A stretch of 64,000 nt of DNA from a virus (IMGVR_UViG_3300027704_000022:2791-66790); one strand, 5' to 3'; positions 21,113-39,523 are shown, numbered from the stretch's first letter. Numbers and translations are program-made. Notes: generated by a model not told the origin, from the sequence alone.

Positions 21113-22154
21113 CGTCTTGACTTATTCCTAAAACTCTGGCTTTCCATTCGGACATACCCTCTAGCCTCTCAGCTTCCTCCTTGATAGATTCTTTTTGCAT
21201 CTCCGCGATGTGGACCATTGTTTCTCTTTCTTGTTGTTCTTGGAAAAGTTGGACGATAGCGAGAAATGAGGCATTTTCTTTATGCATTTTTTTCATCCTA
21301 TCTCCCCTGTCTCCCTGTAGCTTCTTGGTTAGATTCTCAATGCGAGTTTCGCACTGGTGATACTCCCCACTCTTAGCTTTAATAATCTCAGCTAGCCTTA
21401 TAGACATCTCTTGTTGTTCATCGGCATCGTCGAACATGCTGTTCAATTTGTTTAGATGTGCGCTTATTACTTCTAAGTTAATAACTTCTTTGCAAACATT
21501 CAGGTAAAGATTTAATTCGTCCGCTGTTAGATCGGGTTTGTCCCATGTCAGCCGAATAAATTCATGCTCAAACAACACTCTGTCTTCTGAATTTAATAAA
21601 TTATTAATAATTTTAAGAAATCTAGAATTAGAAAGGTTGATTCCTAGCCTTTCTACACAAATCTGCTTTTGTCTATTAATCCTTTGTTCATTTAATGTCT
21701 GTCCAGTAGCATCATTTATCTTTTTTATGATTCTAGAGGGGGATCTTGGCGCAAGATATGAGTTTAAAGCCCCCGAATCTTGAGACGGCAACATATCTGG
21801 GTTAACTTCCCTGATTTTTTCTAAAACTACACGCTGCTCCGAACTCAAAGGCTTTACATTCCTAGACGGGAAAACAATTTTAGCTATTTCCAATGAGGAC
21901 AACCCCTCTTGGGCTTGTTGTAAAATGAACGTACCCTGTTCACTAGTCAGATTTATAACTTCTGCTGGGATTCTACAAGTAGTATTGAATTTTATAGAGT
22001 TCTCCACCAAGAACTTTCTAACAGCCCTCCCCTCTTTAGACCTTCCATCTAAAAGTTCATCGCCAAAACATTTCTTAGTCAGATCAATGAGATCTGGCAT
22101 TTCATTAGCATGAACCCTTAAGAATTCTTTTTGTTCTTTATTAAGATCCATCAC
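21102..22154 (-). CDS. Hypothetical helical protein, possible terminase small subunit
   Basis: 350 aa with an HTH-like segment (GLSSLEIAKIVF) and a coiled coil, two genes upstream of TerL. Confidence 0.35.
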   Translation of the reverse strand: MMDLNKEQKEFLRVHANEMPDLIDLTKKCFGDELLDGRSKEGRAVRKFLVENSIKFNTTCRIPAEVINLTSEQGTFILQQAQEGLSSLEIAKIVFPSRNVKPLSSEQRVVLEKIREVNPDMLPSQDSGALNSYLAPRSPSRIIKKINDATGQTLNEQRINRQKQICVERLGINLSNSRFLKIINNLLNSEDRVLFEHEFIRLTWDKPDLTADELNLYLNVCKEVINLEVISAHLNKLNSMFDDADEQQEMSIRLAEIIKAKSGEYHQCETRIENLTKKLQGDRGDRMKKMHKENASFLAIVQLFQEQQERETMVHIAEMQKESIKEEAERLEGMSEWKARVLGISQDDAI

Positions 22155-22812
22155 CTATAATATCTTGGTCTTTGAGAATATCTATAGCTACTTGAAGAAA
22201 TTTTTTCTTTAAGTTCTTAACTTGTCTATAACCAAGCTTCTTTTTTTGAGGGGAAATCTTATAACCCATGAATTTAGCGACATCTTCTTCACTGCTACTT
22301 TCAAAGTATAACATTTGATAAGCTATGTAGTGGTTGGCGCTCAAACGCGCCTCCATTTCAATATTTAACTTTCCCACAGACAATGGGAAATCAAAATCCA
22401 AATATTCTTTATTAGAGACTTCTTTTATAAAATCTTCAGTAGAAAGCGGGATCTTTAATTCTAATCCTGCTTTTTTTGACTTTTCCCATTTACTGCATAT
22501 AGAACAGTGGGCGTGAGAGTGATCGGGTAATTGGTAATCGGGGCAGGGATTGACATAATTGCCGTAATGATTTCTCACTAGGTTTCTTATTTGATTAGAT
22601 ATGATCCTACCTATCCACGGCTCAAGAGGACGACTCTGATCCCACATGTGCCATTTTTTAGCAATATGTATTTTTATGATTTGCTGAACATCCTCGAAAT
22701 CAAACCACTTAACAGCGTAAAGCCGCCATTTATATTGTTGTTTGCTTACCGCTTCGTCTATTACTTCAGAGAAGTCTTCATATGTATAATCACTTCTCTC
22801 TTTTCTTTTCAT
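22141..22812 (-). CDS. Phage sigma-70-like factor
   Basis: DFEDVQQ..WDQSRPLEPWI..IISNQIRN resembles region 2; C-terminal HTH (SEEDVAKFMG); ATG at 22812. Confidence 0.65.
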   Translation of the reverse strand: MKRKERSDYTYEDFSEVIDEAVSKQQYKWRLYAVKWFDFEDVQQIIKIHIAKKWHMWDQSRPLEPWIGRIISNQIRNLVRNHYGNYVNPCPDYQLPDHSHAHCSICSKWEKSKKAGLELKIPLSTEDFIKEVSNKEYLDFDFPLSVGKLNIEMEARLSANHYIAYQMLYFESSSEEDVAKFMGYKISPQKKKLGYRQVKNLKKKFLQVAIDILKDQDIIGDGS

Positions 22813-23131
22813 TAATAAAATCATTAACAGATTGAGTATTATCCCTTCGATTTGTTTCGATTGGGGTTGGCTCACCTAATAACGACCCTATTGTTCGATT
22901 AGAAATATCAGAGCTTTCAAATTCTACTTGAAAATTACTGATTTCAGGAACGAATTCAGCATCCGTCTCATCTGACGAAATAACCGAAGATTTTCTTTCT
23001 ATAGCAGAAGTCTTTGCAGAAACAGCAGCAACTGTAGAATTTAAAGGTTGTCCGCACTTATTACAGAAATTGGGTTTTGCGTTTGCAAAAGAAATTTTAG
23101 AGCCGCAACTCTGACAGAATAAATGAGCCAT
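22790..23131 (-). CDS. Zinc-ribbon protein
   Basis: FCQSCG..NFCNKCG motif. Confidence 0.7.
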   Translation of the reverse strand: MAHLFCQSCGSKISFANAKPNFCNKCGQPLNSTVAAVSAKTSAIERKSSVISSDETDAEFVPEISNFQVEFESSDISNRTIGSLLGEPTPIETNRRDNTQSVNDFINEKKREK

Positions 23132-25093: not shown

Positions 25094-25129
25094 AAAAAGC
25101 TTTTTGTTTGTTCTGTTCTGTGATAAAAT
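25094..25129 (+). promoter_or_regulatory. Early-type promoter (AAAAGCTTTT class)
   Basis: AAAAGCTTTT box with TAAAAT at 25124, 6 nt before the ATG. Confidence 0.55.
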
Positions 25130-25135
25130 ATCCCC

Positions 25136-25372
25136 ATGACAACGCAAGAGGAATACAAGCAAGAACTAAAGAAGCAAGCTCGCAAATTACTCGCTTACCG
25201 TTTCGGCGGTGGCATCCCAGTAAAGCGGTCTCGCATCTTCTTTGCCGAAGTAAATAAGACCGCCAAATTAATCATTAAATCTTCAAGTCACTGCGAAACC
25301 TGCAACGGCACTGGCTGGATTCCTGAAGTATATCAGGGCGAGAGGGAGTGGAGCTGCTGCCAAGATTGCTAA
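25136..25372 (+). CDS. Small early protein with CxxCxGxG zinc finger
   Basis: CETCNGTG..CQDC motif; own promoter. Confidence 0.7.
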   Translation: MTTQEEYKQELKKQARKLLAYRFGGGIPVKRSRIFFAEVNKTAKLIIKSSSHCETCNGTGWIPEVYQGEREWSCCQDC

Positions 25373-25450
25373 GATTGCACAGGATTTTAAGCCGTCAAAT
25401 AATAGTAGAAAAAGCTTTTCTTAAATCAAAAATTACACTATAATACCGAC

Positions 25451-25645
25451 ATGACCGCAACACTAGAGCAAGTCCAAAGCACCTACAAAAATCTTGGCGT
25501 AATGAATAGCTGGGACGAAAACCCTGAAGAGTTTCAGAATATGATCTCTCAAAAGTGGCAACGTCGTACCGTCTATACGGGCGCGACTTACGAGACTCAA
25601 GCTTGTCACGAAAATAAAACCTTCTGGAAAGTCTACACCTCCTAA
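25451..25645 (+). CDS. Small early hypothetical protein
   Basis: TATAAT at 25439, 6 nt before the ATG. Confidence 0.65.
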   Translation: MTATLEQVQSTYKNLGVMNSWDENPEEFQNMISQKWQRRTVYTGATYETQACHENKTFWKVYTS

Positions 25646-25838: not shown

Positions 25839-26063
25839 ATGAACATACACAATTTCAAAGACCAATCCAACAAGGGCAAAGCCCTTCTTCTTCTTACTTA
25901 TCCTCTCGCCATCGGTGTGCATTACATGGAATGGCATAGGATGCGAAAGCTTCAGCGCATGATCAGAAAGTGGATCAGTGCCGCTTGCAAGAACCCGAAC
26001 GGGCATGAGGCTGAGATGGTTAAGGAGTGGAGCTATGAGCTTAACGACATCTATGGCAAGTAA
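25839..26063 (+). CDS. Small early protein with a hydrophobic segment
   Basis: 74-aa ORF in operon with the preceding gene. Confidence 0.6.
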   Translation: MNIHNFKDQSNKGKALLLLTYPLAIGVHYMEWHRMRKLQRMIRKWISAACKNPNGHEAEMVKEWSYELNDIYGK

Positions 26064-26194: not shown

Positions 26195-26304
26195 CGGGTG
26201 GTTGCTTGATATCAGGGTGTCACCTCATTTTAAATCAGAACGGTGAGAACGTCAAGCCTTTTAGGGTGAAAAAAGTAAATAAAAACATTTAAATAAAAAC
26301 GCTG

Positions 26305-26379
26305 TAACTCACTGAGCGATAGGGAGTTAGCGCGGTCGCCCCGCCCGATCCGCCTAACTCGTTGATACTCAACGAGTTA
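26305..26379. repeat. 75-bp twin-palindrome element, copy 1
   Basis: TAACTCACTGAGCGATAGGGAGTTA / 25-bp GC spacer / TAACTCGTTGATACTCAACGAGTTA. Confidence 0.95.
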
Positions 26380-26525
26380 CGAGGGTTTTCCCCATATAGG
26401 AAACTCAAGCCGATGTCAAGACTTTCCTCAAAGAAAAAGATGTCAAGCCTTTAAACAAGAAAAAGAATTTGTTTTCTATGTAGAAAAAGCTTTTAATTTC
26501 TGCGTTTCTAGAGTAGAATATGGGC

Positions 26526-26771
26526 ATGTCCAACATTACCAACTCGTTCAACGTCGTTAACCTAATCAATAAGCGTGTCACTTATACCACATCCAACAGC
26601 GGCAACACCCGCAAGTATATCCTCAAAAGCATCGACCGCATCGGTGACGGATTCGCAGTCTGTAAAGTTATCGATAAGAGCGACGATAAGAAGAGCGAAA
26701 AGCAAGTCTGGAAGACTCTGCGCTTCGACGGCATCTCGTCCCTTTCCCACTGCGGTGCGCTTGTTCGATAA
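26526..26771 (+). CDS. Small early protein, WYL-like/SH3-type barrel candidate
   Basis: RVTYTT..G.TRKY and WKTLRFDGI motifs; second ATG lies 6 nt after TAGAAT. Confidence 0.6.
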   Translation: MSNITNSFNVVNLINKRVTYTTSNSGNTRKYILKSIDRIGDGFAVCKVIDKSDDKKSEKQVWKTLRFDGISSLSHCGALVR

Positions 26772-26785
26772 TGCTAACTAGCTTC

Positions 26786-26812
26786 AAAGCCTCCCGAAAG
26801 GGAGGCTTTTTT
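26786..26812 (+). terminator. Intrinsic terminator
   Basis: GCCTCCC-GAAA-GGGAGGC plus T-run. Confidence 0.85.
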
Positions 26813-26890
26813 GCTTCCATGCCAAAAAAAAGATTAAAATACATACAGAAAAAGCTTTTGATTTCTGCGTTTCTAGATTAGAATATGCGC

Positions 26891-27187
26891 ATGTCCGATA
26901 CTACTACCGCACAACGCTACTTCGTCATCACCGTTCAGTCCTGCTCTGGCCCCGACATGGGGAAAACCCTTCTCCTTGGCTTTGGCAAATCCGAAAAAGA
27001 CGCTTGGAGGGACGCGGCTGGCGATTGGTATCCACGACACTGTCATGAGTGCGATGCCGATTTCTACGAATACAGGGGGACGGCGGGAAAGATGCTGTCA
27101 TTCACGGCTACTCCCGCTTTTTACGACACCGACCCAACCCCAATAGATCTCCTGACCGTATATCGGCAGTCGCGACTGGATCAGTGA
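26891..27187 (+). CDS. Small early protein (paralog of 27492-27692)
   Basis: LGFGKSEKDAWRDA..CHECDA; second ATG lies 6 nt after TAGAAT. Confidence 0.7.
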   Translation: MSDTTTAQRYFVITVQSCSGPDMGKTLLLGFGKSEKDAWRDAAGDWYPRHCHECDADFYEYRGTAGKMLSFTATPAFYDTDPTPIDLLTVYRQSRLDQ

Positions 27188-27202
27188 TCAGCCCCTGTGA
27201 TC

Positions 27203-27225
27203 GGCTCCCGAAAGGGAGCTTTTTT
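27203..27225 (+). terminator. Intrinsic terminator
   Basis: GCTCCC-GAAA-GGGAGC plus T-run. Confidence 0.85.
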
Positions 27226-27296
27226 GCTTGTAAAGAAAAAAAGAATTTCTTTTTTGCTTGACGCTTGAGCGGGAAACACTAAGGGGGAAAACGCTG

Positions 27297-27371
27297 TAAC
27301 TCACTGAGTAGTAGGGAGTTAGCGCGGGGCGGGGGGGCGTTCGCCCTAACTCGTTGAGTATCAACGAGTTA
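27297..27371. repeat. 75-bp twin-palindrome element, copy 2
   Basis: Palindromes at 27297-27321 and 27347-27371; G-rich (reversed) spacer. Confidence 0.95.
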
Positions 27372-27491
27372 CGAAGGTTTTCCCCGTAAAGAAAACTGAC
27401 GCTCATGTCAAGCATTTAAATCAGAAAAAAAAGATTAAAATACATGCAGAAAAAGCTTTTAAAAAATCAATTTTTAAGGTAAAATCTGCCC

Positions 27492-27692
27492 ATGCCTAGC
27501 ACTACCAAATACTACGTGATCGTCGGTCAGTCCTCCATCAATTTCGGGAACTTGTATCTCGGATATGGAAAATCAAAATCAGAGGCGTGGGATGACGCTA
27601 CGGGCGGCGGTCGCAGAAATCGCGACTGGGATTGTCGCGAATGCGACGCGACGATGTATCATTCTCACGGCGAACAGGGGTCGCTCATCTAA
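27492..27692 (+). CDS. Small early protein (paralog of 26891-27187)
   Basis: LGYGKSKSEAWDDA..CRECDA. Confidence 0.7.
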   Translation: MPSTTKYYVIVGQSSINFGNLYLGYGKSKSEAWDDATGGGRRNRDWDCRECDATMYHSHGEQGSLI

Positions 27693-27712
27693 AAAAACAT
27701 TTAAAAGGGGGG

Positions 27713-27741
27713 TTGACTCCCCCCTCATTTTCAACTAAAAT
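27713..27741 (+). promoter_or_regulatory. Sigma70-type promoter
   Basis: TTGACT-17-TAAAAT, a near copy of the 25666 promoter region. Confidence 0.7.
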
Positions 27742-27747
27742 ACCGAC

Positions 27748-27915
27748 ATGACAACGACAGAGGAAGCACTCGCAGCGATGGCCAAGGCAGAAGATTCTTG
27801 GAATAAAATGATTGATGAGACCGTTCAGATTTCTGGCCAGTTCCAAAAAGACTGTGAAGAGATTTTCGCAGACGCTCCAGAGAAGCCAGAGCAAGACGCA
27901 AGATTCCTCGCTTAA
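27748..27915 (+). CDS. Small acidic early protein (paralog of 25702-25833)
   Basis: Read manually: MTTTEEALAAMAKAEDSWNKMIDETVQ.., 55 aa. Confidence 0.7.
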   Translation: MTTTEEALAAMAKAEDSWNKMIDETVQISGQFQKDCEEIFADAPEKPEQDARFLA

Positions 27916-27925
27916 AAATAACAAT

Positions 27926-28069
27926 ATGAAAACACTAGCATTCTTCACCGCAATCTCTCTGTTCGTGGCGCTCATTGGAAATCTTGAGCTTCGCGACTGG
28001 GAAGCAGACCAGAAAATTAAATTAGAAAATCGTCAAAATATCTTTGACAAACTCTCCGAAAAACTTTAA
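27926..28069 (+). CDS. Small membrane/secreted early peptide
   Basis: MKTLAFFTAISLFVALIG hydrophobic N-terminus; likely true start of track ORF 27812. Confidence 0.5.
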   Translation: MKTLAFFTAISLFVALIGNLELRDWEADQKIKLENRQNIFDKLSEKL

Positions 28070-28081
28070 AATATCCTCGTT

Positions 28082-28384
28082 ATGAAAAACACATACTACC
28101 AAATGACCCCCAGCCAACTCGCCAAAAAGATCACCAATCGCGTGATCGAGTATCACAATGAAGGCGAGTCTTCCATCAAGAAAGATGGCATTCGCAAGTT
28201 CCTTGTGGAAGAAGTGCAAGCCGATGCTTTCTCCTCCGTCGAGAATCGTCGCTACCTCAAAGTGAAGACCCGCGATCTAGATGATGGCGGCAAGTCTAAA
28301 TTCCGCACAATTCACGTTGCGGGGATTTCCAAGGTGGACGGGAAAATCAAGACGGCTGCTCGGATGGTCAAATCAGTTTTTTAA
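28082..28384 (+). CDS. Small early protein, WYL-like/SH3-type barrel candidate
   Basis: RVIEY..GIRKF..DLDDG..FRTIHVAGI; TTGACA-17-TAAAAT promoter at 28044-28072. Confidence 0.6.
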   Translation: MKNTYYQMTPSQLAKKITNRVIEYHNEGESSIKKDGIRKFLVEEVQADAFSSVENRRYLKVKTRDLDDGGKSKFRTIHVAGISKVDGKIKTAARMVKSVF

Positions 28385-28428
28385 TGTGTGTGTGTTGCTA
28401 GCCTCCTTTGGTCGGGAGGTTGGCTTTT

Positions 28429-28476
28429 CCCCTCGTTTTCGGTCTTGATTACTTCCGAAAGCGAGGGGTTTTTTTT
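28429..28476 (+). terminator. Intrinsic terminator
   Basis: CCCCTCGTTTTCGG..CCGAAAGCGAGGGG plus T-run. Confidence 0.8.
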
Positions 28477-28547
28477 GCCTGTAAAGAAAAAAAGAATTTC
28501 TTTTTTGCTTGACTCTTGAGCGGGAAACACTAAGGGGAAAAACGCTG

Positions 28548-28622
28548 TAACTCGTTGAGTATCAGTGAGTTAGGCGGGGCGGCGGGGCGGATCGCGCTAA
28601 CTCGTTGAGTATCAGTGACTTA
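28548..28622. repeat. 75-bp twin-palindrome element, copy 3
   Basis: Palindromes at 28548-28572 and 28598-28622; reversed spacer. Confidence 0.95.
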
Positions 28623-28857
28623 GAGCGTTTTTTTGAGGCCCGTAAAGTGTTGGCGCTCAGGGGGTTATATCTATTTGCTTCGAAATGTTCTGACCTACGT
28701 ATTAAGGAGAAATGTCCTGACCTGCATTTAAAATAAAAAAAAAGCAAAAAAAAGGCAGAAAGATGTTGCACACAAGTGAGATCCTGTTACACTGTGCATG
28801 TCGCTGATGAACAACTGATTCGGGGGCATCAAACCAATAACAGCAAATAATATAGTT

Positions 28858-29868
28858 ATGAACACGAAGAAAACAAAGACAGAGTTCTATAAGGACTCCC
28901 ACAAAGCAGTGCCAGAGTATAACCTCATGGCGAAACCTCTATCCAAGGCTCCACAGGTCCAAAAGGTAGGGATCTATAATATAATGCAGATAAACAAGGA
29001 AAACATCGGAATCGATGATGGCTTCCAAAGGGCATTAAACAGAAAACAAATCAAAAATATCTCAGACAATTGGGATAATGATGATTGTGATTTGCCTAAC
29101 GTTTATCTGCACGAATATAAAGGTAAATACTATCCTCAAATCACTGATGGTCAGCATAGAATTTGCGCCTCTCCTCATAAGGTCATTGATTGCAGAGTAG
29201 TTAATACACTAGCATCAATCACAAGGTGCTTGCGAGCTAATGACCCAAGGACGAAAAGTCAATGGGAAGTAAACGCTAGATTCTGGGGTAAGGCTGAAGC
29301 GATTACTAGGCTTAAAGAAGATGATCCTGAGAACATTCATGGGGCAATCAAACTTTTTAAAGAGCTTGGTTATAATCCATTGAACCCGACAAAGCAGAAA
29401 GCTCTTGATCTTGGATCTAGTGTCGCAGCACTACACGGCCAAACCTTAGCTGCTATTAACACTATGTTAAAAAACAGATTGTTGGAATCGAAAGAGAAAG
29501 TCGCCATTACTAAAAAAGTCATGGAAGACACTATCAAGATAATTGATTATGTTTTCCGAGATGAGATCGAAGGTGAAAAGAAGTTCGGAATGCAAATGTG
29601 GTCTGGATTACCTCAATTCCTGTTAGACTCTATAGAAGATAGAGGTTTAGGGGGATCGTATGATATCGATACAGTTAAAGACGCTATCAAAAATGGTGTT
29701 TGGGGTATAGGTGGTAGTCACCCAAGAAAAGACAAGCTAAAAAAGTGGATTGAATTTGAATCCGCCACTGTTGCTTATCAAGCTAGTAATATGGTAGGAA
29801 TCTCTAAAAGGAAAGCTAACTGCTGGCAGAGACTTTTCTTTGATATGCACAAACTCCATAGCAAGTAA
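28858..29868 (+). CDS. ParB/Srx-fold DGQHR-domain protein
   Basis: FQRAL..I..NWD..PNV..ITDGQHRI N-terminal domain; helical C-terminus. Confidence 0.75.
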   Translation: MNTKKTKTEFYKDSHKAVPEYNLMAKPLSKAPQVQKVGIYNIMQINKENIGIDDGFQRALNRKQIKNISDNWDNDDCDLPNVYLHEYKGKYYPQITDGQHRICASPHKVIDCRVVNTLASITRCLRANDPRTKSQWEVNARFWGKAEAITRLKEDDPENIHGAIKLFKELGYNPLNPTKQKALDLGSSVAALHGQTLAAINTMLKNRLLESKEKVAITKKVMEDTIKIIDYVFRDEIEGEKKFGMQMWSGLPQFLLDSIEDRGLGGSYDIDTVKDAIKNGVWGIGGSHPRKDKLKKWIEFESATVAYQASNMVGISKRKANCWQRLFFDMHKLHSK

Positions 29869-29881
29869 AGTATTAAACTCA

Positions 29882-29915
29882 GCCCGTCCCCGAAAGGGGG
29901 CGGGTTTTTCTTTTT
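29882..29915 (+). terminator. Intrinsic terminator
   Basis: CCCGTCCCC-GAAA-GGGGGCGGG plus T-run. Confidence 0.85.
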
Positions 29916-29928
29916 AATAAAACCTTCC

Positions 29929-30003
29929 TAACTCGTTGATTAGCAGCGACTTAGGGCGGTCGCCCCCGCGCCTCGCCGTAACTCGTTGAGTAGTAGTGAC
30001 TTA
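29929..30003. repeat. 75-bp twin-palindrome element, copy 4
   Basis: Palindromes at 29929-29953 and 29979-30003. Confidence 0.95.
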
Positions 30004-30138
30004 CAGCGTTTTTCTGAATGATCGGTCAAATGACCGATTATCACAGTCACTCTCTATTTGCTCTAAAATATACTGACCTACAAAAAAACAATTAAAAAAG
30101 TATTGCCCAAAGGAGATTTATTGTTTATATTCCCCCTG

Positions 30139-30573
30139 ATGAAACACATTGAGACCAACGAAGAGATAGAGCAAATGATGAATGAGAAGAATATGTCTTG
30201 CGGCGAGGTAATAACACTTGCTGACTTTGCTTATGATATCTCCCAATTTGAACAAGACAATGATATATTCCCTTTGGAGGATCGCGTATTACTACGTGCA
30301 TGGCATTCAGCTGCAGACTCGTTCGTGGATTCAATGACAGAGAATGCTCGCGACATGCCCCTGAGTGATTTTTACATCAGAGAAGGCGAGACAGCACTAG
30401 AAGCACAAGAGGCTCAGATAGCGTATTTTGAGGCGATGCGCCCAAGAACGAAACGCATCAATCATATCGCCAATATCTCAACTGCCAATAATTACGGTGT
30501 GTGGCTTAGTGATGGCAGCAACTCCCTTCTCGCAAAGCGGAAGGCGGAGCCGCCGAAATTGCCGAGAGCCTAG
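30139..30573 (+). CDS. Acidic early hypothetical protein
   Basis: ATG at 30139 lies 7 nt after a TTGCCC-17-TATATT promoter. Confidence 0.65.
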   Translation: MKHIETNEEIEQMMNEKNMSCGEVITLADFAYDISQFEQDNDIFPLEDRVLLRAWHSAADSFVDSMTENARDMPLSDFYIREGETALEAQEAQIAYFEAMRPRTKRINHIANISTANNYGVWLSDGSNSLLAKRKAEPPKLPRA

Positions 30574-30622
30574 AAATAGCTCATGCCGCCTCGACTCACT
30601 CCTGAAACTTAAAAAGACCTCC

Positions 30623-30697
30623 TAACTCATTGATTGACAGTGAGTTAGGGCGGTCGCCCCCGCGCCCCGCCGTAACTCGTTGAGTATCAGTGACTTA
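30623..30697. repeat. 75-bp twin-palindrome element, copy 5
   Basis: Palindromes at 30623-30647 and 30673-30697. Confidence 0.95.
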
Positions 30698-30914
30698 CAG
30701 CGTTTTTCTCTCTACTCTATAAATCGGGGCAAGTAAAGCTTTTTCTTTCTATTTGGCGCGAAATGACCTGACCTGCGCTATTTGGCTCAAAATGTCCTGA
30801 CCTACAAAAAAAAGATTAAAAAACATTAAAAAAGCCCTTGTCCACAAATCATTTTCTGCTATAATCTCCCCAGTTGAGAGACAAACTCTCACAAACAAAA
30901 AAACCATTACTACT

Positions 30915-31679
30915 ATGCTTATCTACGCAAAAAACAAAGTCAATTCGGAACAACTCGCTGGCGTTCAAACTCCAGAAGGAACTAGATCCCACACCCCTAT
31001 CCCTCATCACAACTTAGTGAAGATGACTCGCGAAGCTCTTAACATCGCAGGTCTTGAAGTGACTGAAGAGGAACATGCTCTTGCCCGTGGTGGTTTGCGC
31101 TACTTCGGAGGATTCGCCCTTAAAGGGAAAGACGTTACTGGAACTGATCGTCAGATCGTGTTAGGTCTTCGGAATGCTCATGACAAGTCTTTCGCCGCTT
31201 CAATTGCGGTAGGAAACAAAATGATGGTTTGTGATAACCTTTGTTTCTCTTCTGACATCAAGCTCGCTCGCCGTCACACGACTCACATTCTAGGCGACTT
31301 GCCTCGCGTTTTATCTTCTGCGGTCGCTCGCGTGACTTCCCACTGGCAAGATATGAGCAAGCGCATTTCAGCTTATCAAGAAACAGCTGTCGAAGATGCC
31401 GCTTCAATGATTGTTCAACTTGTAGATTCTAAGGCTTTCCCCGCCCGTGACATTTACAAAGCTGTTGAAGAATTCCGCAATCCTCGCCACGAAGAGTTTA
31501 AAGGGGGTTCTCTTTGGAGTCTTTATAATTCCGTCACTGAAAACCTGAAAGGTAGCGACTTGACAAAGCTTGCTGATCGCACGATGCGTATGCAATCCGT
31601 CTTCGATAAGTTCGCGAATCACTCTCCAGAGATCATCACTCAGGAGGATAAAGAATCCGCTTTAGTCTTACCCGCCTGA
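30915..31679 (+). CDS. DUF932/DUF945-family protein
   Basis: HTPIPH, LGLRNAHDKS, VCDNLCF, RRHT and SLWSLYNSVTE motifs. Confidence 0.75.
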   Translation: MLIYAKNKVNSEQLAGVQTPEGTRSHTPIPHHNLVKMTREALNIAGLEVTEEEHALARGGLRYFGGFALKGKDVTGTDRQIVLGLRNAHDKSFAASIAVGNKMMVCDNLCFSSDIKLARRHTTHILGDLPRVLSSAVARVTSHWQDMSKRISAYQETAVEDAASMIVQLVDSKAFPARDIYKAVEEFRNPRHEEFKGGSLWSLYNSVTENLKGSDLTKLADRTMRMQSVFDKFANHSPEIITQEDKESALVLPA

Positions 31680-31696
31680 TTGTCAAGAAAATAAAC

Positions 31697-31735
31697 AGCC
31701 TCGCTTTCCTTAATCGGAAGCGAGGCTTTTGTTTG
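31697..31735 (+). terminator. Intrinsic terminator
   Basis: AGCCTCGCTT..AAGCGAGGCT plus T-rich tail. Confidence 0.8.
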
Positions 31736-31758
31736 CCTAGGTTACAATAAAAACTCTC

Positions 31759-31833
31759 TAAGTCGTTGAGTATCAGGGAGTTAGCGCGGTCGCCCCGCCC
31801 GATCCGCCTAACTCGTTGTCGCTCAGTGAGTTA
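31759..31833. repeat. 75-bp twin-palindrome element, copy 6
   Basis: Palindromes at 31759-31783 and 31809-31833; spacer identical to that of copy 1. Confidence 0.95.
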
Positions 31834-31944
31834 CGCAGCTTTTTTCCTTAGTGTTTAATCTGCGGAAGTCAAGCACTAAAAAATAATTAAAAACAATTAA
31901 AATAGGCTTGAGCCTAGGCCAAAACCTGCCAGAATACTTTTGTT

Positions 31945-32298
31945 ATGGGATTAGATCAAAACGCTTATGCGATAGAAAAAAAAGGCTTAAAGGAACACTT
32001 TGTGGATCTTGCTTATTGGAGAAAACACAATGCTCTTCAAGGATGGATGGAAAACCTTTTTCGCCTTCGCGGTGGTAAAGGAACGTTCAACTGTCAAGAT
32101 ATTCATCTCTCTGCCGTAGATATCGACCTTTTGGAATCTGTCGTTAAATCTGACAGCTTGCCACAGACAGAAGGTTTCTTCTTTGGCGAAGACTCAAGCC
32201 TAGATAAACATAAAAAAGAAATCACTTTGCAATTCATAAAAGATGCGAGAATCCATCTTGAACTTGGAAAAGAAATTTGCTATTCTTCAAATTGGTAA
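31945..32298 (+). CDS. Conserved phage hypothetical protein (MGLD..YWRK family)
   Basis: MGLDQ, YWRKHNALQGW and GFFFG motifs. Confidence 0.7.
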   Translation: MGLDQNAYAIEKKGLKEHFVDLAYWRKHNALQGWMENLFRLRGGKGTFNCQDIHLSAVDIDLLESVVKSDSLPQTEGFFFGEDSSLDKHKKEITLQFIKDARIHLELGKEICYSSNW

Positions 32299-32310
32299 CA
32301 CAAAAAAAAG

Positions 32311-33012
32311 ATGAAATTACTAAATCAAGGCAATGCCAAAACACTCAAGGGTGAAAAGGTTGGATTCCGAACTTTCGGTCTCCATCTCTCCCCTGCTAAC
32401 AAATCAGGATTCAACGTCTGCCAATGGTCAAGTGCGGGATGCCGTGCCGCTTGCTTGGATACTGCGGGACGCGGTTGCATGTCTAACGTGCAAAGTTCTA
32501 GAATCGCAAAGACTCAAAGGTTCTTTAAGGATAACTTCGGTTTTATGTCTGATCTTAGAATTGAAATCGGCAAAGCAATCATCAGCGCAGGAAAGAAAAA
32601 CCTCACTCCCTGCTTTCGTCTTAACCTCACCTCGGATATTCCTTGGGAGAATGTCCGCAAGGCTAGCAAAACAAATATGATTGAAGAGTTCCCCAATGTA
32701 AATTTTTATGATTACACAAAGGGTTTCTATAGAATGAGGGCTTGGCTTGATGGCAAAATGCCTGACAACTATCATCTCACCTTCTCTCGTAGCGAAGAGA
32801 CTAGCGACAACAGAGTAAAAAAGATTCTTTCGTTAGGTGGGAACGTCGCGGTTGTTTTCCGTGGTTCACTCCCCAAAACTTACCTTGGATATCCCGTTGT
32901 AAATGGAGATGAGAACGATCTACGCTTTAAAGATCCTAAAGGCGTAGTCGTTGGATTGATTGAAAAAGGTCTTGCGAAGAAAGACGAAACGGGCTTTGTA
33001 GTTGAACCTTAA
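32311..33012 (+). CDS. GP88-like protein (Cys cluster, radical-SAM-related fold)
   Basis: VCQWSSAGCRAACL, RLNLTSD, FYDYTK and GDENDLRF motifs. Confidence 0.7.
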   Translation: MKLLNQGNAKTLKGEKVGFRTFGLHLSPANKSGFNVCQWSSAGCRAACLDTAGRGCMSNVQSSRIAKTQRFFKDNFGFMSDLRIEIGKAIISAGKKNLTPCFRLNLTSDIPWENVRKASKTNMIEEFPNVNFYDYTKGFYRMRAWLDGKMPDNYHLTFSRSEETSDNRVKKILSLGGNVAVVFRGSLPKTYLGYPVVNGDENDLRFKDPKGVVVGLIEKGLAKKDETGFVVEP

Positions 33013-33079
33013 GACATGACAGAATTTTTTATAACTTTGATCGCTTGTTTAATACTCATCCTAGATAGAGATAGATAAT

Positions 33080-33355
33080 ATGAAAAGAACAAATTCGGTT
33101 AGACAGGCCAAAATAGAACACGACTCATTGCTCGAAAAAGCGATAGAGAGAAAAGAAATAATACAACAATCGTCCGAAGGAAACTTCGGCATGTATGATG
33201 TCATTCCCTCAAATACAGGGCGCATCGTTGGCGATGCTTGCGATAGATTCTTTGAATCTAGAAATATAAAGTATGGTTCCTCTTGGTTCCACGAACAGAA
33301 AGACAGAAAGAAAGAATTACAAAAATTAAAAGATGAACAAAATAAAGACAATTAA
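33080..33355 (+). CDS. Hypothetical protein
   Basis: 91-aa ORF in operon. Confidence 0.55.
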   Translation: MKRTNSVRQAKIEHDSLLEKAIERKEIIQQSSEGNFGMYDVIPSNTGRIVGDACDRFFESRNIKYGSSWFHEQKDRKKELQKLKDEQNKDN

Positions 33356-33548
33356 ACTAACAGGACACTTCGACAAGACCTTTAGTGTTCAAAGGGAGGA
33401 GCCTGAATTTAGCTATAAAGGCTTAGAATATTCCATTGAATGGGATTTTGATAAGAAGAAAACTCGTATTCCTTTATCGTTACACGGTGCAAAGGAGCTG
33501 ACCGAAGTTTTTGAAAAGTTCGGCTTCACGCAAATTCACAGAAAATAA
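33333..33548 (+). CDS. Hypothetical protein
   Basis: 71-aa ORF in operon. Confidence 0.5.
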   Translation: MNKIKTIKLTGHFDKTFSVQREEPEFSYKGLEYSIEWDFDKKKTRIPLSLHGAKELTEVFEKFGFTQIHRK

Positions 33549-33550
33549 TT

Positions 33551-33844
33551 ATGAATAAAGAAATAACATTCCCGATGGTCCATCTAAACGGCACGGGAGA
33601 GACAACGCTGAGAAGAGAATACTATGATTTCTATAAGGCATTATGCAAAGCACAGTCGGCCATGAAGGAACTCACTTTTCATGCGAGAGACTACTATCCT
33701 TTAGGAGAAAACGCTTTCTCCGATGCTATAGACGAAAGAAGAGAAATGATGGATTCTTTAGTTGAATTTCGACAATATATTCGAAGGCATGTCTATGAAC
33801 TAAACAAGGGTAAAGAACGACCTTTACTTGAAGAAGAAGAATGA
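33551..33844 (+). CDS. Hypothetical protein
   Basis: 97 aa with P.VHLNGT and HARDYY motifs. Confidence 0.65.
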   Translation: MNKEITFPMVHLNGTGETTLRREYYDFYKALCKAQSAMKELTFHARDYYPLGENAFSDAIDERREMMDSLVEFRQYIRRHVYELNKGKERPLLEEEE

Positions 33845-33870
33845 AATAACTTGACAACATAAAACCCTCC

Positions 33871-33945
33871 TAACTCGTTGAGTATCAACGGGTTACGGCG
33901 GACGGGCGGGGCGACCCCCGTAACTCACTACTAATCAACGACTTA
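33871..33945. repeat. 75-bp twin-palindrome element, copy 7
   Basis: Palindromes at 33871-33895 and 33921-33945; spacer is close to the reverse complement of the copy 1 spacer. Confidence 0.95.
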
Positions 33946-34029
33946 CAGCGTTTTTTCGGAGGTTACTGTTAAAGTGAAATAAAATCTGCGGTTATGCGTT
34001 ATGCTTATTTATTGGGGTTTGTTTAGATC

Positions 34030-34345
34030 TGGGCTAATCGCTTATTTAGAATGTTTCGGTTGACCTGCGTTTATTTAGGGTTTTTCTCTTGACCTGCGAA
34101 AAACACGAAAAGATTCTGGTGCTTCGGCGTATCGTTTATTTGCGGCTTTTCGCTTGACCTGCAGAAACGCGGCTAATCGCTTATTTACGCTCTTTCGGTT
34201 GACCTGCAGTTATTGGCTGTTATTGGGTGTTATTGGATGGCCTATTAATCGTGCCACGTAATCGCGCCAAAAGGTTTAATCGTGCCACGCAATCGTGCCA
34301 TTGGGGTATTGTGTTTATTTGGGGTCTTTCAGTTGACCTGCGGTT
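34030..34345 (+). repeat. Iteron-like cluster: five TATTT-N13-TGACCTGC plus AATCG(T/C)GCCA x4 and GTTATTGG x3
   Basis: TGACCTGC at 34061, 34090, 34155, 34200 and 34334. Confidence 0.9.
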
Positions 34346-34645
34346 ATTTGCGGCTATTTGCGGCTAATCTCTTCCGATCTCTTCCGATCTCTTTCTTTGG
34401 GCTTTACATCTTGTTTCTTTCGCCATGCGCGATACCATTCACTGAACACTTCGTAGTCTGTCTTTTTGTCTCCCTTGAAATTGAACTCTCTTTGTTTCTC
34501 TTTCATTTTGTTTTATTTGCTTGCTTAGATAAAATACACCGATTAGCGAATTGTGAGTCTTCCCTATATTCAACTCTCATTAGGGAGATCTCTACGCCGC
34601 CGAGCATCTCCCAGCAGCGCCTAATGAAAGCTGAATGTAAAGAAG

Positions 34646-34719
34646 TAGATGCGGCGGGATTCGAACCCGCACTTGAGCGATTTTAAGTCGCTTGCCTCTA
34701 CCAGTTGGGCTACGCATCC
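34646..34719 (-). tRNA. tRNA-Leu(TAA) with short variable loop and no encoded CCA
   Basis: GGATGCG acceptor; AGCGA-CTTAAAA-TCGCT anticodon arm; GCGGG-TTCGAAT-CCCGC T arm. Confidence 0.9.
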
Positions 34720-37272: not shown

Positions 37273-37530
37273 TTAATCTTCGAATCGGTTAATAGAGAAC
37301 TGGATTTTAGCTTCAGGCTCTTCTAGAGCTGGAGTCGGCATAGCAGTAATCTTGACTGGGTTATTACTAGGCTCATTCCATAGACCAAGCTCTGTAAGAC
37401 CATCGATCCACTTCTTAGAGACTACAATAGCTGTCTCTTTACCTAGCTGGCTGACCAAGTGGTTAAGGTTAACTTTGACAAATGATGTCGAGCCTTGGGG
37501 CCGACCTCTTCTTTTGGGTGTTTCGTTCAT
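37273..37530 (-). CDS. Small AT-hook-like DNA-binding protein
   Basis: KRRGRPQGS; TTGCAC-16-TATAAT promoter just upstream. Confidence 0.55.
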   Translation of the reverse strand: MNETPKRRGRPQGSTSFVKVNLNHLVSQLGKETAIVVSKKWIDGLTELGLWNEPSNNPVKITAMPTPALEEPEAKIQFSINRFED

Positions 37531-37601
37531 ACGCAAGCATTATATCAACGATCCGACCCCGTGCAAGCCTTTTTTTGCCTTTTTTTGAATTTAAATTCTT
37601 A

Positions 37602-39447: not shown

Positions 39448-39523
39448 TGGTGCGCCCGACTGGATTTGAACCAGTGACAAAGGGTTTATGAGACCCCTGC
39501 TCTAACCACTGAGCTACAAGCGC
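39448..39523 (-). tRNA. tRNA with CAT anticodon (probably Ile2, alternatively elongator Met)
   Basis: GCGCTTG..GGGGT-CTCATAA-ACCCT..TTCAAAT..ACCA; paired 1:72, so not an initiator. Confidence 0.9.

Follow-up and report, generated by a model that had tools for sequence, protein, structure and literature searches.

Twin-palindrome elements between gene cassettes of marine siphovirus-like phages: candidate architectural punctuation and homology patches

The window analysed here—the whole stretch of 64,000 nucleotides of viral DNA—contains an island in which genes are set apart by seven copies of one palindromic module. What is such a module for, and what would hold its geometry constant while its sequence drifts? 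An earlier note on this DNA took the fixed geometry as a sign of either a protein–DNA complex or a cruciform, and considered cassette recombination and the loading of a ParB-like protein as roles. From this first interpretation, the two-site protein complex and cassette recombination find support, whereas the cruciform and ParB loading do not. Our tentative reading, to which we assign a probability of roughly 0.4, is that the elements might be DNA-level architectural punctuation bound by a host protein of the IHF/HU type, and might in addition provide homology patches for cassette shuffling, as promoter-early stem-loops (PeSLs) do.

Seven elements in one island

Element copies are present at all seven starts reported before (26305, 27297, 28548, 29929, 30623, 31759, and 33871), with start-to-start spacings of 992, 1251, 1381, 694, 1136, and 2112 bp, and a repeat search of the window returns them as one gapless 97-nt repeat family. 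The module comprises about 95 bp: a 25-bp palindrome, a 25-bp GC-rich spacer, and a second 25-bp palindrome, plus 10-nt A-run/T-run flanks. The copies are the following.

26295–26389, plus strand: element copy 1 (core 26305–26379), with an IHF-consensus match on the minus strand at 26355–26367
27287–27381, plus strand: element copy 2 (core 27297–27371), with an IHF-consensus match on the plus strand starting at 27359
28538–28632, plus strand: element copy 3 (core 28548–28622); two plus-strand matches to the IHF consensus begin at 28560 and 28610
29919–30013, plus strand: element copy 4 (core 29929–30003), whose first palindrome holds a minus-strand IHF-consensus match; a terminator at 29881–29906 precedes the copy
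30613–30707, plus strand: element copy 5 (core 30623–30697), upstream of a DUF932 gene
31749–31843, plus strand: element copy 6 (core 31759–31833), directly after the DUF932 gene; preceded by a terminator at 31697–31727
33861–33955, plus strand: element copy 7 (core 33871–33945), the final one in the island; two plus-strand matches to the IHF consensus begin at 33883 and 33933

Within the window, the 25-nt palindrome (up to three mismatches) matches exclusively inside these seven elements; 100 dinucleotide shuffles gave 0 matches, and the whole 66,790-bp record holds no match outside the elements. A profile HMM trained on 101 elements, all taken from contigs other than the window, recovers exactly the seven copies (E ≤ 1e-20) and places the next match at E = 1.7, which bears out the claim that the element occurs nowhere else in the window.

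The twin 25-25-25 layout holds as described, but full symmetry does not: flanks, loops, and spacer are oriented differently between copies. Copies 1 and 2 resemble copies 4, 5, and 7 better as reverse complement (I3 81% versus D1 63–69%), and the spacer of copy 2 is G-rich on the plus strand. The GC spacer itself bears a dyad symmetry centred on the element, with 0.58 paired in the central register versus 0.34–0.46 in 12 other registers.

Placement relative to genes and promoter-like boxes

All seven copies are intergenic, as had been noted, and the usual order of terminator, element, and promoter is also confirmed: canonical plus-strand terminators end 20–120 bp upstream of copies 1, 2, 4, and 6. 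Some copies are flanked by boxes that point into the element and whose hexamers suggest a promoter function.

26391–26419, minus strand: putative promoter-like box into copy 1 (TTGACA, then TATGGG)
27258–27285, plus strand: putative promoter-like box into copy 2 (TTGACG, 16 nt, TAAGGG; second hexamer atypical)
27383–27411, minus strand: putative promoter-like box into copy 2 (TTGACA, then TACGGG), forming a convergent pair around this copy with the box at 27258–27285
28509–28536, plus strand: putative promoter-like box into copy 3 (TTGACT, 16 nt, TAAGGG)
31845–31872, minus strand: putative promoter-like box into copy 6 (TTGACT, then TAAGGA)

Across the family, about a third of the flanks have a −35-type TTGACA box that points into the element and whose distance to the palindrome edge is constant at 39 bp; TTGAC boxes at exactly −39 were counted in 52/258 flanks. 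The second hexamer of these inward boxes is atypical, with T as its last base in 3/43 only.

The DUF932 gene is bracketed by elements at the positions of copies 5 and 6 on each side in 25 of the 25 loci holding that flank, and this synteny holds across 57–96% protein identity. The distance from element to DUF932 start is not fixed (214–385 bp), which counts against a strict promoter-architecture role. Elsewhere, the tail genes of the phage are siphovirus-like and of the lambda-J type.

A family of elements in related phages

At least 158 IMG/VR stretches match the element; it is a widespread family that extends beyond one phage. From these matches, 130 unique twin copies were obtained. In 103 of them the palindromes repeat with a period of 50 bp; the others have periods of 48 (4 copies), 49 (7), 51 (7), 52 (7), 53 (1), and 58 bp (1), and the related genome G001 shows a period of 52–53 in all its elements. 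The lengths described as invariant are thus invariant within the window, but in a minority of the family's copies the period is 48–53 or 58 bp. Variable spacer length in homologues, which the earlier note had named as evidence against its reading, is in part what is seen, as a small length variation.

Sixteen columns are invariant across 59 diverse copies. Imperfect palindromes are common, position 4/22 being unpaired in 20/59 first and 35/59 second palindromes. Each genome has its elements confined to a single island or to two; the related records G001 and G002 bear six and seven of them, and one of these records is rated 100% complete.

The palindromes as candidate IHF-type sites

The palindrome loop together with one arm fits the IHF consensus WATCARNNNNTTR, and the 13-mer made up of the loop and the right arm is identical to WATCAANNNNTTR, the consensus stated in PMC9452768 (WATCAR-NNNN-TTR). 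The variable palindrome positions 18 (A/G), 19, and 22 coincide with R/N positions of this consensus, and the rule of a central W followed by A is kept in 193/258 loops. Each element of the window holds at least one exact match, and the seven together hold 10 of the window's 18.

These sites are polar. Oriented by gene direction, the perfect consensus is found on the coding strand in 62+75 cases versus 8+8 on the other strand (137 versus 16), and within the loop, conservation covers the A at position 14 but not the mirror position 12. They are also tandem: the two palindromes of an element agree in the orientation of the site in 48 cases and disagree in 7, and the loops of paired palindromes are direct repeats. 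Half-sites that are conserved yet vary independently of their partners, together with a polar, tandem match to the IHF consensus, suggest that the fixed geometry reflects a protein–DNA complex with two sites 50 bp apart—one of the possibilities raised at the outset.

The binder is probably a host IHF/HU-type protein, as judged from the sites themselves. The three phage records contain no DNABII gene, so this protein would have to come from the host. The phage is without Shine-Dalgarno sites, and the host may hence belong to a lineage with an unstudied IHF specificity. The match has its limits: the IHF consensus carries only about 15 bits of information, a perfect match is missing in 26/101 first and 14/101 second palindromes, and among 258 palindromes 218 are classed as "not all perfect" and 40+40 are without an exact consensus match.

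Conservation also exceeds the IHF consensus, at G20, A21, and the entire second arm, so a different symmetric protein fits equally well. It is possible, albeit rather doubtful, that the palindromes are operators of a dimeric or tetrameric regulator, either of the phage or a non-IHF host factor, which would bind both palindromes, might bridge the GC core, and would silence the adjoining promoter-like boxes and cassettes or set their timing. Both palindrome arms are conserved, the outer slightly above the inner; the spacer dyad is exactly element-centred; a TTGAC box at −39 would let the palindrome span roughly +4 to +28 of a transcript, as an operator would; and all three genomes encode a conserved protein of 87 aa that bears an AT-hook-like KRRGRPQG motif. 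However, none of the candidates covaries with the element in the data examined, and the 29 ORFs common to the three genomes include none with a recognised sequence-specific DNA-binding domain. The polar loop rule would be unexpected for a symmetric dimer, and 61/129 elements lack a TTGAC box in the nearest 45 nt.

RNA, hairpin, and cruciform readings

Might the palindromes instead act as folded single strands? As a three-hairpin sRNA, a bidirectional terminator, a stabiliser of mRNA ends, or an extruded cruciform, the element would work as RNA or single-stranded DNA, and we consider this unlikely. The single-strand folds are stable (z −4.1 to −6.2 in 8 of 10 strands folded; −0.7 and −2.1 for the plus strands of copies 4 and 7), and the GC spacer shows some i:26-i complementarity. 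Yet no base-pair covariation is present in either palindrome of the family, and selection for a cruciform or an RNA hairpin—the second possibility of the earlier note—is for this reason not supported. A three-hairpin structure is paired to 75.7% versus 74.9% in shuffles, 48/500 of which reach it, and helices 1 and 3 hold just 2 and 1 doubly changed pairs, respectively; the pairing of one long hairpin even falls below chance. The compensated C-G pair at palindrome position 8 is rarer than expected (3 observed), the unpaired position 4/22 in over half of second palindromes argues likewise, and the balance of G-U against A-C on the coding strand (161 versus 139) indicates no RNA polarity.

The A-run/T-run flanks do resemble those of bidirectional terminators, and the folded strands are mostly stable. 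An intrinsic terminator, however, has a GC-rich stem with the U-run immediately behind it, whereas here the T-run starts 5–6 nt past an AT-rich stem; four of the seven copies are already preceded by canonical terminators, and the terminator scan calls lie upstream of the elements, not on them. Transcripts from the promoter-like boxes would begin about 5 nt ahead of the first palindrome, and in bacteria a related single palindrome often lies behind tRNA genes and is followed by T-runs. One RNA-library contig covers a whole hybrid copy 1/2 element, so transcription through the elements is possible, although contigs of this kind cannot show RNA ends. The element has no Rfam match; the Rfam covariance models returned tRNA hits and sub-threshold chance hits only.

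Cassette shuffling and mobility

Relatives and metagenome contigs differ by exactly one cassette plus one element, which supports the role in cassette recombination that had been suggested. Compared with its relative L308, the window has an additional unit of element 4, ORF, and element 5, and the single element of L308 is chimeric, with the left flank of element 4 and the right flank of element 5. L310 carries one extra unit relative to L312, and L308 and L307 arrange their cassettes in different orders. In window coordinates, the junctions in marine contigs connect 26295 with 27288 (exactly from copy 1 to copy 2), 27376 with 28545, and 31680 with 33870; one further junction runs back from 33902 to 31825. 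G002 contains a stretch, 5.3 kb or longer, that is 100% identical at two places; it begins at an element edge and reaches the contig end. Of the homology break points, 18–20% are located 15 bp or less from an element, versus 8–9% for random island positions, an about 2-fold excess that an intergenic-only null could remove.

No integrase, resolvase, or Y1 transposase was found in the three phage records, which favours general recombination, and a module of about 95 bp recurring every 0.7–2 kb would supply the homology for it. That the elements are instead selfish mobile DNA (MITE- or REPIN-like) or sites of a dedicated, integron-attC-like recombinase, with no phage function, is quite improbable. 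Each cassette-sized indel carries exactly one element, spacer and flanks occur in either orientation between copies, and one Microscillaceae MAG holds a related single palindrome 118 times (up to one mismatch) in a unit of about 170 bp with terminal inverted repeats, along with three Y1-transposase matches. Against this, none of the three phage records, of which one is rated complete, contains a tyrosine recombinase, serine recombinase, or Y1 transposase, synteny around DUF932 and a GP88-like gene persists at 50–66% protein identity, and the elements stay confined to their one or two islands. The pattern is missing in 300/300 other sampled genomes of one host phylum. The twin GC-cored element is nearly absent from bacterial genomes (3/125 loci, one examined record being a small MAG contig). 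A match to a host repeat or MITE, also named earlier as contrary evidence, applies to the single palindrome, which is sporadic in bacteria and once part of a MITE, but not to the twin element.

Finally, it is highly improbable that the elements are centromere-like loading sites of the ParB-like protein whose gene lies between copies 3 and 4: a ParB-N-like ORF does lie inside the island (weak PHROG hit, E 9.5e-6), but the protein was found in the window's own record as positive control and not in the element-bearing records G001 and G002, and the cassette is also missing in close relatives such as L304, leaving this earlier proposal unsupported.

Proposed mechanism

Under the architectural reading, the island would hold hypervariable accessory—probably early—genes of a lineage of large, uncultured marine siphoviruses. 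Its 25-bp palindromes would be symmetrised IHF/HU (DNABII)-type sites, in which WATCAR-NNNN-TTR, on the coding strand, is made up of the central W, the A that follows it, and the right arm. Two like-oriented sites, 50 bp apart, would sit astride a stiff, GC-rich 25-bp core with weak dyad symmetry. A host DNA-bending protein might occupy both sites shortly after injection and so fold every terminator–promoter junction into a compact nucleoprotein knot. Such a knot could keep adjoining transcription units apart, and it might leave the inward promoter-like boxes occluded or poised. The repeated modules would also give homology for general recombination, by which terminator-to-terminator cassettes could be deleted, inserted, or reordered with genes left unbroken.

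Comparison with known systems

The H′ site of lambda attP is an example of an IHF binding site. With such sites the elements share, as known here from sequence, the 13-mer WATCAR-NNNN-TTR, variation at its N/R positions, and polar orientation. They differ by symmetrisation to a 25-bp palindrome, the extra G20/A21, the tandem arrangement at 50 bp, and the GC-rich core.

Integron attC sites are imperfect palindromes of drifting sequence and fixed geometry that separate small, promoterless-to-short gene cassettes, and the elements likewise combine palindromes of drifting sequence and preserved geometry with a position between small cassettes. Here, however, the phages are without integrase, the cassettes have their own promoters and terminators, and structure-preserving covariation is absent; attC was rejected as an assignment for lack of PF00589 in the phage records and of folded-strand covariation. 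REP/REPIN with RAYT was likewise rejected, with no PF01797 in G000, G001, and G002, long-hairpin pairing below chance, and copies confined to islands. A mini-CRISPR or repeat decoy was discarded since a GC-rich consensus and dyad symmetry are common to the spacers, which are thus unlike diverse acquired ones, and arrays never exceed two repeats.

BIME-1/RIP/RIB of E. coli (REP–IHF site–REP) and the Correia elements of Neisseria are extragenic mosaics of palindromes and an IHF site at gene ends, which influence transcription, mRNA, and recombination. The present element is BIME-1 inverted: two IHF-like palindromes flank a GC-rich core, where in BIME-1/RIP/RIB two GC-rich REPs flank an IHF site. 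In contrast to both families, it is phage-borne and island-confined rather than dispersed genome-wide.

PeSLs of T4-type phages consist, as described in PMC2839356 and PMC4122927, of a strong sigma-70 promoter and a terminator stem-loop. As PeSL proper the element was rejected, as it does not have this make-up and does not reside in a T4-type phage. There, the PeSL is outlined as a composite, conserved intergenic motif of about 100 bp, associated with promoter and terminator and repeated in hyperplastic regions rich in small ORFans, all of which the element shares (PMC2839356, PMC4122927). In both systems, close relatives differ by an ORF plus one motif, as from recombination between neighbouring motifs, and chimeric junction motifs are found here (PMC2839356, PMC4122927). 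Set against the PeSL outlined in PMC2839356, the core of the element consists of twin IHF-like palindromes and a GC-rich 25-mer, with terminators and gene promoters outside; its boxes point inward with an atypical −10, and its stems are without covariation. The PeSLs of that source belong to T4-like myoviruses, the elements to marine siphovirus-like phages.

The twin-palindrome element and its copies

Across 26200–34100 of the window, one unit recurs in the order A-run, 25-bp palindrome, 25-bp spacer of ~85–90% G+C, 25-bp palindrome and T-run—with each palindrome made of two 11-bp arms around a 3-bp loop (positions 12–14 of 25). Seven copies were read from the sequence.

Copies of the element in the window (start, strand, feature)
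26305, + strand, copy 1
27297, + strand, copy 2
28548, + strand, copy 3
29929, + strand, copy 4
30623, + strand, copy 5
31759, + strand, copy 6
33871, + strand, copy 7

The copies, spaced 992, 1251, 1381, 694, 1136, and 2112 bp apart, align without gaps over 97 nt in a repeat search of the window. Matches to the consensus palindrome with up to three mismatches are confined to them—in the window as in the rest of the 66,790-bp IMG/VR record—and 100 shuffles yield none. A profile HMM trained on 101 elements, all from other contigs, recovers exactly these seven copies (E ≤ 1e-20; next hit E = 1.7) and scores each at least as high on the + strand as on the − strand. The seven 25-25-25 elements of the earlier note are thus confirmed by sequence, repeat search, and a model built from relatives, and its statement that the window holds no others is borne out by HMM and palindrome scan. 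Its claim of invariant lengths holds within the window but not among relatives, where 103 of 130 unique twin copies have a palindrome period of 50 bp, 14 deviate by 1 bp (49 or 51 bp), 11 by 2 bp (48 or 52 bp), and one each has 53 and 58 bp. The related phage records G001 (109 kb) and G002 (148 kb, rated complete) bear six twins with a period of 52–53 bp and seven twins in two clusters with a period of 50 bp, respectively. This spread describes a geometry that is strongly, not absolutely, fixed.

Distribution among phages

The window belongs to an uncultured phage without a close cultured relative: among 50,697 records of cultured phages, neither near nor distant DNA similarity gave a real match, and protein searches with TerL and GP88 led to remote cultured relatives only. 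It encodes lambda-J-type tail genes, a T4-type large terminase, PhoH, an ERCC4 nuclease, and a sigma-like protein. An island of raised G+C on the + strand (~24.9–34.7 kb), flanked on either side by a − strand block, carries the elements; the island's small ORFs are mostly without known function. Shine–Dalgarno motifs are nearly absent from the window, and the DNA upstream of start codons is A-rich; tRNA-Leu(TAA) (34645–34719) and tRNA-Met (39448–39523) are encoded on the − strand.

Near-identical DNA occurs in 18 marine metagenomic DNA runs of nine coded studies, each holding at least 84% of the sampled words, whereby four of these runs may themselves be the source. A degenerate palindrome pattern matches at least 158 stretches of IMG/VR contigs, and most of the stretches listed show the twin architecture with GC-rich spacer; the element-bearing contigs are many and reach 180 kb. 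The anatomy and the family are real and conserved. As neither the motif strings nor such repeats were found described in CC-licensed PMC papers and bioRxiv, the family is, as far as these searches reach, undescribed in this literature.

Predicted IHF-type sites

A literature search by arm sequence led to a table of predicted IHF sites with the entry AATCAACGAGTTA, in a paper that also states the IHF consensus 5'-WATCAANNNNTTR-3' (PMC9452768). Aligned to the palindrome, this consensus spans the middle base of the loop (W), the A after it, and the right arm, which together read T-A-T-C-A-A/G-N-G-A-G/C-T-T-A. The positions that vary in the family (18, which is A or G only, 19, and 22) coincide with R and N positions of the consensus, and of 18 consensus matches in the window, 10 fall inside the seven elements, with at least one in each.

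The loop sets which orientation is a perfect site, and W followed by A is found in 193 of 258 loops. The two loops of one element are direct, not inverted, repeats, and hence both sites point the same way (48 elements versus 7). Orientation by the C-rich spacer strand had masked this polarity; orientation by gene direction exposed it. When the conserved DUF932 gene is used to orient 101 unique elements of 26 islands, first and second palindromes carry a perfect consensus on the coding strand in 62 and 75 cases, on the other strand in 8 and 8, on both in 5 and 4, and on neither in 26 and 14. The loop itself is polar, with 1.2–1.3 bits at position 14 (A) and 0.2–0.3 bits at its mirror position 12. 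A DNABII-type site would be expected to show just such a polar, tandem arrangement, and we infer that the palindromes are IHF/DNABII-type sites. The proposal that the fixed geometry reflects a protein–DNA complex with two sites 50 bp apart gains support from these predicted sites. Likeness to the Fur box, LexA boxes, parS, and N4 hairpin promoters was set aside for unfit motifs or spacing.

Conservation in the element exceeds what the IHF consensus requires, and the elements might alternatively be bound by a dedicated regulator; a phage-encoded HU/IHF gene was not found in the three phage records (the window's own, G001, and G002). An 87-aa protein (37273–37536, −) with an AT-hook-like KRRGRPQG motif, possibly DNA-binding, is conserved in these three phages and encoded next to a RuvB/clamp-loader-like ATPase.

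Hairpins and cruciforms

Selection for RNA hairpins, as under a rival reading of the element as RNA or terminator, or for a cruciform—the latter suggested earlier as a reason for the fixed geometry—should make variable stem positions co-vary, and no such covariation is seen. In 129 elements, Watson–Crick pairs at palindrome positions 4, 7, and 8 are as frequent as in shuffles or nearly so; at position 8 they are even fewer (61 observed versus 74 expected). In an alignment of 59 non-redundant sequences oriented by gene direction, a three-hairpin structure is 75.7% paired versus 74.9% in shuffles (48 of 500 reach the observed value), compensatory-change pairs in the two AT palindromes number only 2 and 1, and in 35 of the 59 sequences the second palindrome lacks a pair at position 4/22. 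Pairing for one long hairpin is significantly below chance, and coding-strand counts of G-U versus A-C (161 versus 139) leave a strand polarity unsupported. RNA or cruciform hairpins, the single long hairpin, and G-U polarity thus each lack support in the pairing counts; a hairpin would moreover not predict the polar, tandem IHF-type pattern. No Rfam family matches the element. In the GC spacer, a weak dyad symmetry has its centre exactly at the middle of the element: across 43 sequence clusters, the paired fraction is 0.58 in the central register and 0.34–0.46 in twelve others. Among contigs from RNA libraries, parts of several genes and one element are represented and most elements not at all, a coverage that speaks for neither side.

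Position between transcription units

Canonical + strand terminators end 20–120 bp before copies 1, 2, 4, and 6, and predicted promoters of the next genes follow 75–145 bp after the elements, which places most elements in DNA between transcription units. TTGAC near elements points inward in 97 cases and is reversed in 19, lying exactly at −39 from the palindrome edge in 52 of 258 flanks; of 129 elements, 29 have the box on both sides, 39 on one, and 61 on neither. In the window, boxes point into copies 1 and 6 from the right, into copy 3 from the left, and into copy 2 from both sides. Among 43 unique flanks, the profile reads TTGACA, 16 nt, TA-w-r-G-r, A-run, C and G. As the second hexamer ends in T in only 3 of these flanks, the boxes are atypical promoters, if promoters at all.

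Further motifs surround the elements. ATGTCAAGC(C/A)TTT boxes follow copies 1, 2, and 6 (26413–26449, 27405–27413, and 31865–31873); the one closest to the element coincides with the −35-like TTGACA of the inward box, and the second one after copy 1 is without a −10 partner. A second repeat family, CTATTTG..AAATGTCCTGACCTRC, lies between elements and next promoters (28671–28723, 30054–30079, 30749–30803, and 34032–34348) and includes, after copy 7, five 44-nt units containing TTGACCTGC; these repeats resemble regulator boxes or iterons. Many genes of the island seem leaderless, with a TAnAAT-type hexamer ~7 nt before the ATG (25124–25140, 25437–25453, 26508–26522, 26873–26887, 27479–27494, 27736–27750, and 30126–30144). 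In run X20, RNA-library contigs start at 25839, 28856, and 30915—at or 2 nt before start codons; contig ends do not prove RNA starts. Among the window's − strand and late genes, several structural or late ones carry (T)AGTGTAA ~10 nt before the ATG, for example, upstream of 7852, 12143, 23968, 24856, and 50425, which may be a phage-specific late promoter; the conserved sigma-like protein (22141–22875; weak Sigma70_r2 match) is encoded beside the island.

Cassette differences at the elements

The DUF932 gene (30915–31679) is found in 26 IMG/VR loci at 57–96% identity, one of which (L329, only the first 23 residues) was left out of element mapping. In 25 of 25 loci holding the flank, window included, an element lies 214–385 bp upstream of its start—a range that rejects a fixed element-to-next-gene distance—and in 25 of 25 another lies just past its stop. 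In G001 and G002, elements likewise bracket DUF932, together with a GP88-like gene. The other cassettes vary in number and content among loci: the window has an extra unit of copy 4, ORF156, and copy 5 relative to L308, whose single element combines the left flank of copy 4 with the right flank of copy 5; L310 has one unit more than L312; and cassette order differs between L308 and L307. One joint in marine-run contigs, 26295 to 27288, skips exactly the copy 1-to-copy 2 distance; further joints are 27376 to 28545, 31680 to 33870, and 33902 back to 31825, and two lie away from elements (27754/30543 and 32972/33841).

In G002, at least 5.3 kb are 100% identical at two places (~18.5–23.4 kb and 142.9–147.7 kb; L166 and L167), beginning at the right edge of an element and running to the contig end, with the palindromes absent from the paralogous site; diverged paralogous islands precede the repeat. 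Either the repeat is genuine, or the assembly joined two strain variants of the island. Paralogous small ORFs in the window's island (26885–27187/27492–27692 and 25666–25833/27748–27915; 40% and 66% identity) indicate that cassettes have been duplicated.

Over all pairs, 18–20% of internal homology ends fall within 15 bp of an element versus 8–9% for random island positions. Cassette recombination, as proposed earlier, is therefore upheld by exact cassette-plus-element differences and tempered by a break-point excess of only ~2-fold over random positions anywhere in the island, with most break points elsewhere. Searches of the three phage records for an integrase, a resolvase, and a Y1 transposase found none; the simplest route is therefore general homologous recombination between the ~95-bp repeats, and selfish mobility of the elements loses ground.

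The palindrome module has scattered bacterial relatives. The strict pattern with a 20-nt all-G/C spacer was not found in bacterial genomes; a looser one matches at least 125 bacterial loci. Most of these hold a single palindrome and come from Fibrobacter and Bacteroidota MAGs; the loop is usually A/T, and the palindrome often directly follows a tRNA gene or separates convergent genes. A palindrome starting 4–14 nt past a tRNA 3' end occurs in the bacterial loci L170, L211, L216, L221, L283, and L291 and in phage contig L059 (175–275). W followed by A is found in the loops of 50 of 68 distinct bacterial palindromes. One Microscillaceae MAG (G005), with three Y1-transposase matches, holds the palindrome 118 times (up to one mismatch) inside a ~170-bp MITE-like unit (L177, L239, L247, and others) with terminal inverted repeats CAGCAATTCCCAC... 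and three TGAT(A/T)ATCA-centred palindromes. A phylum-wide host motif was dropped, since none of 300 other genomes sampled in one such phylum has the exact pattern. These sporadic singles, of which only 3 of the 125 loci listed have a GC-rich neighbour, mark the twin element as a phage feature.

Loading by the embedded ParB-like protein did not hold up, as this protein was not found in the element-bearing relatives G001 and G002. The window's ParB-N-like protein (28858–29868, +) has a DGQHR motif and weak PHROG and DUF6551 matches; its cassette is absent from relatives.

Conclusions and perspectives

The best-supported mechanism is a DNA–protein one, in which tandem predicted IHF/HU-type sites would serve as architectural punctuation between expression cassettes; cassette shuffling would then be an evolutionary by-product or co-function. 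If the IHF reading is true, the phage uses an architectural protein of its host to structure the accessory region. A bolder and rather improbable extension is that the module is an undescribed kind of phage-borne chromatin insulator, making accessory genes integrase-free, integron-like plug-in units. Hereby, two tandem IHF-type bends would be clamped by a rigid GC core, and convergent, −35-perfect and −10-defective pseudo-promoters flanking the module would park host RNA polymerase. Each accessory gene might thus become a topologically and transcriptionally autonomous unit, swapped freely among abundant marine siphoviruses.

A conserved, recognisable cassette boundary marker would help to annotate the hypervariable islands of uncultured marine phages, which probably serve anti-defence, and the relatives-based HMM can be used for finding further islands. 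The elements would also make a concrete, testable case, outside the T4 group, of regulatory repeats channelling modular gene exchange. They can be compared with BIME-1/RIP, Correia elements, REPINs, and attC. For the promoter-early stem-loops (PeSLs) of T4-type phages, general recombination between repeats has been proposed and shown (PMC2839356, PMC4122927), just as homologous recombination between repeats would exchange cassettes here.
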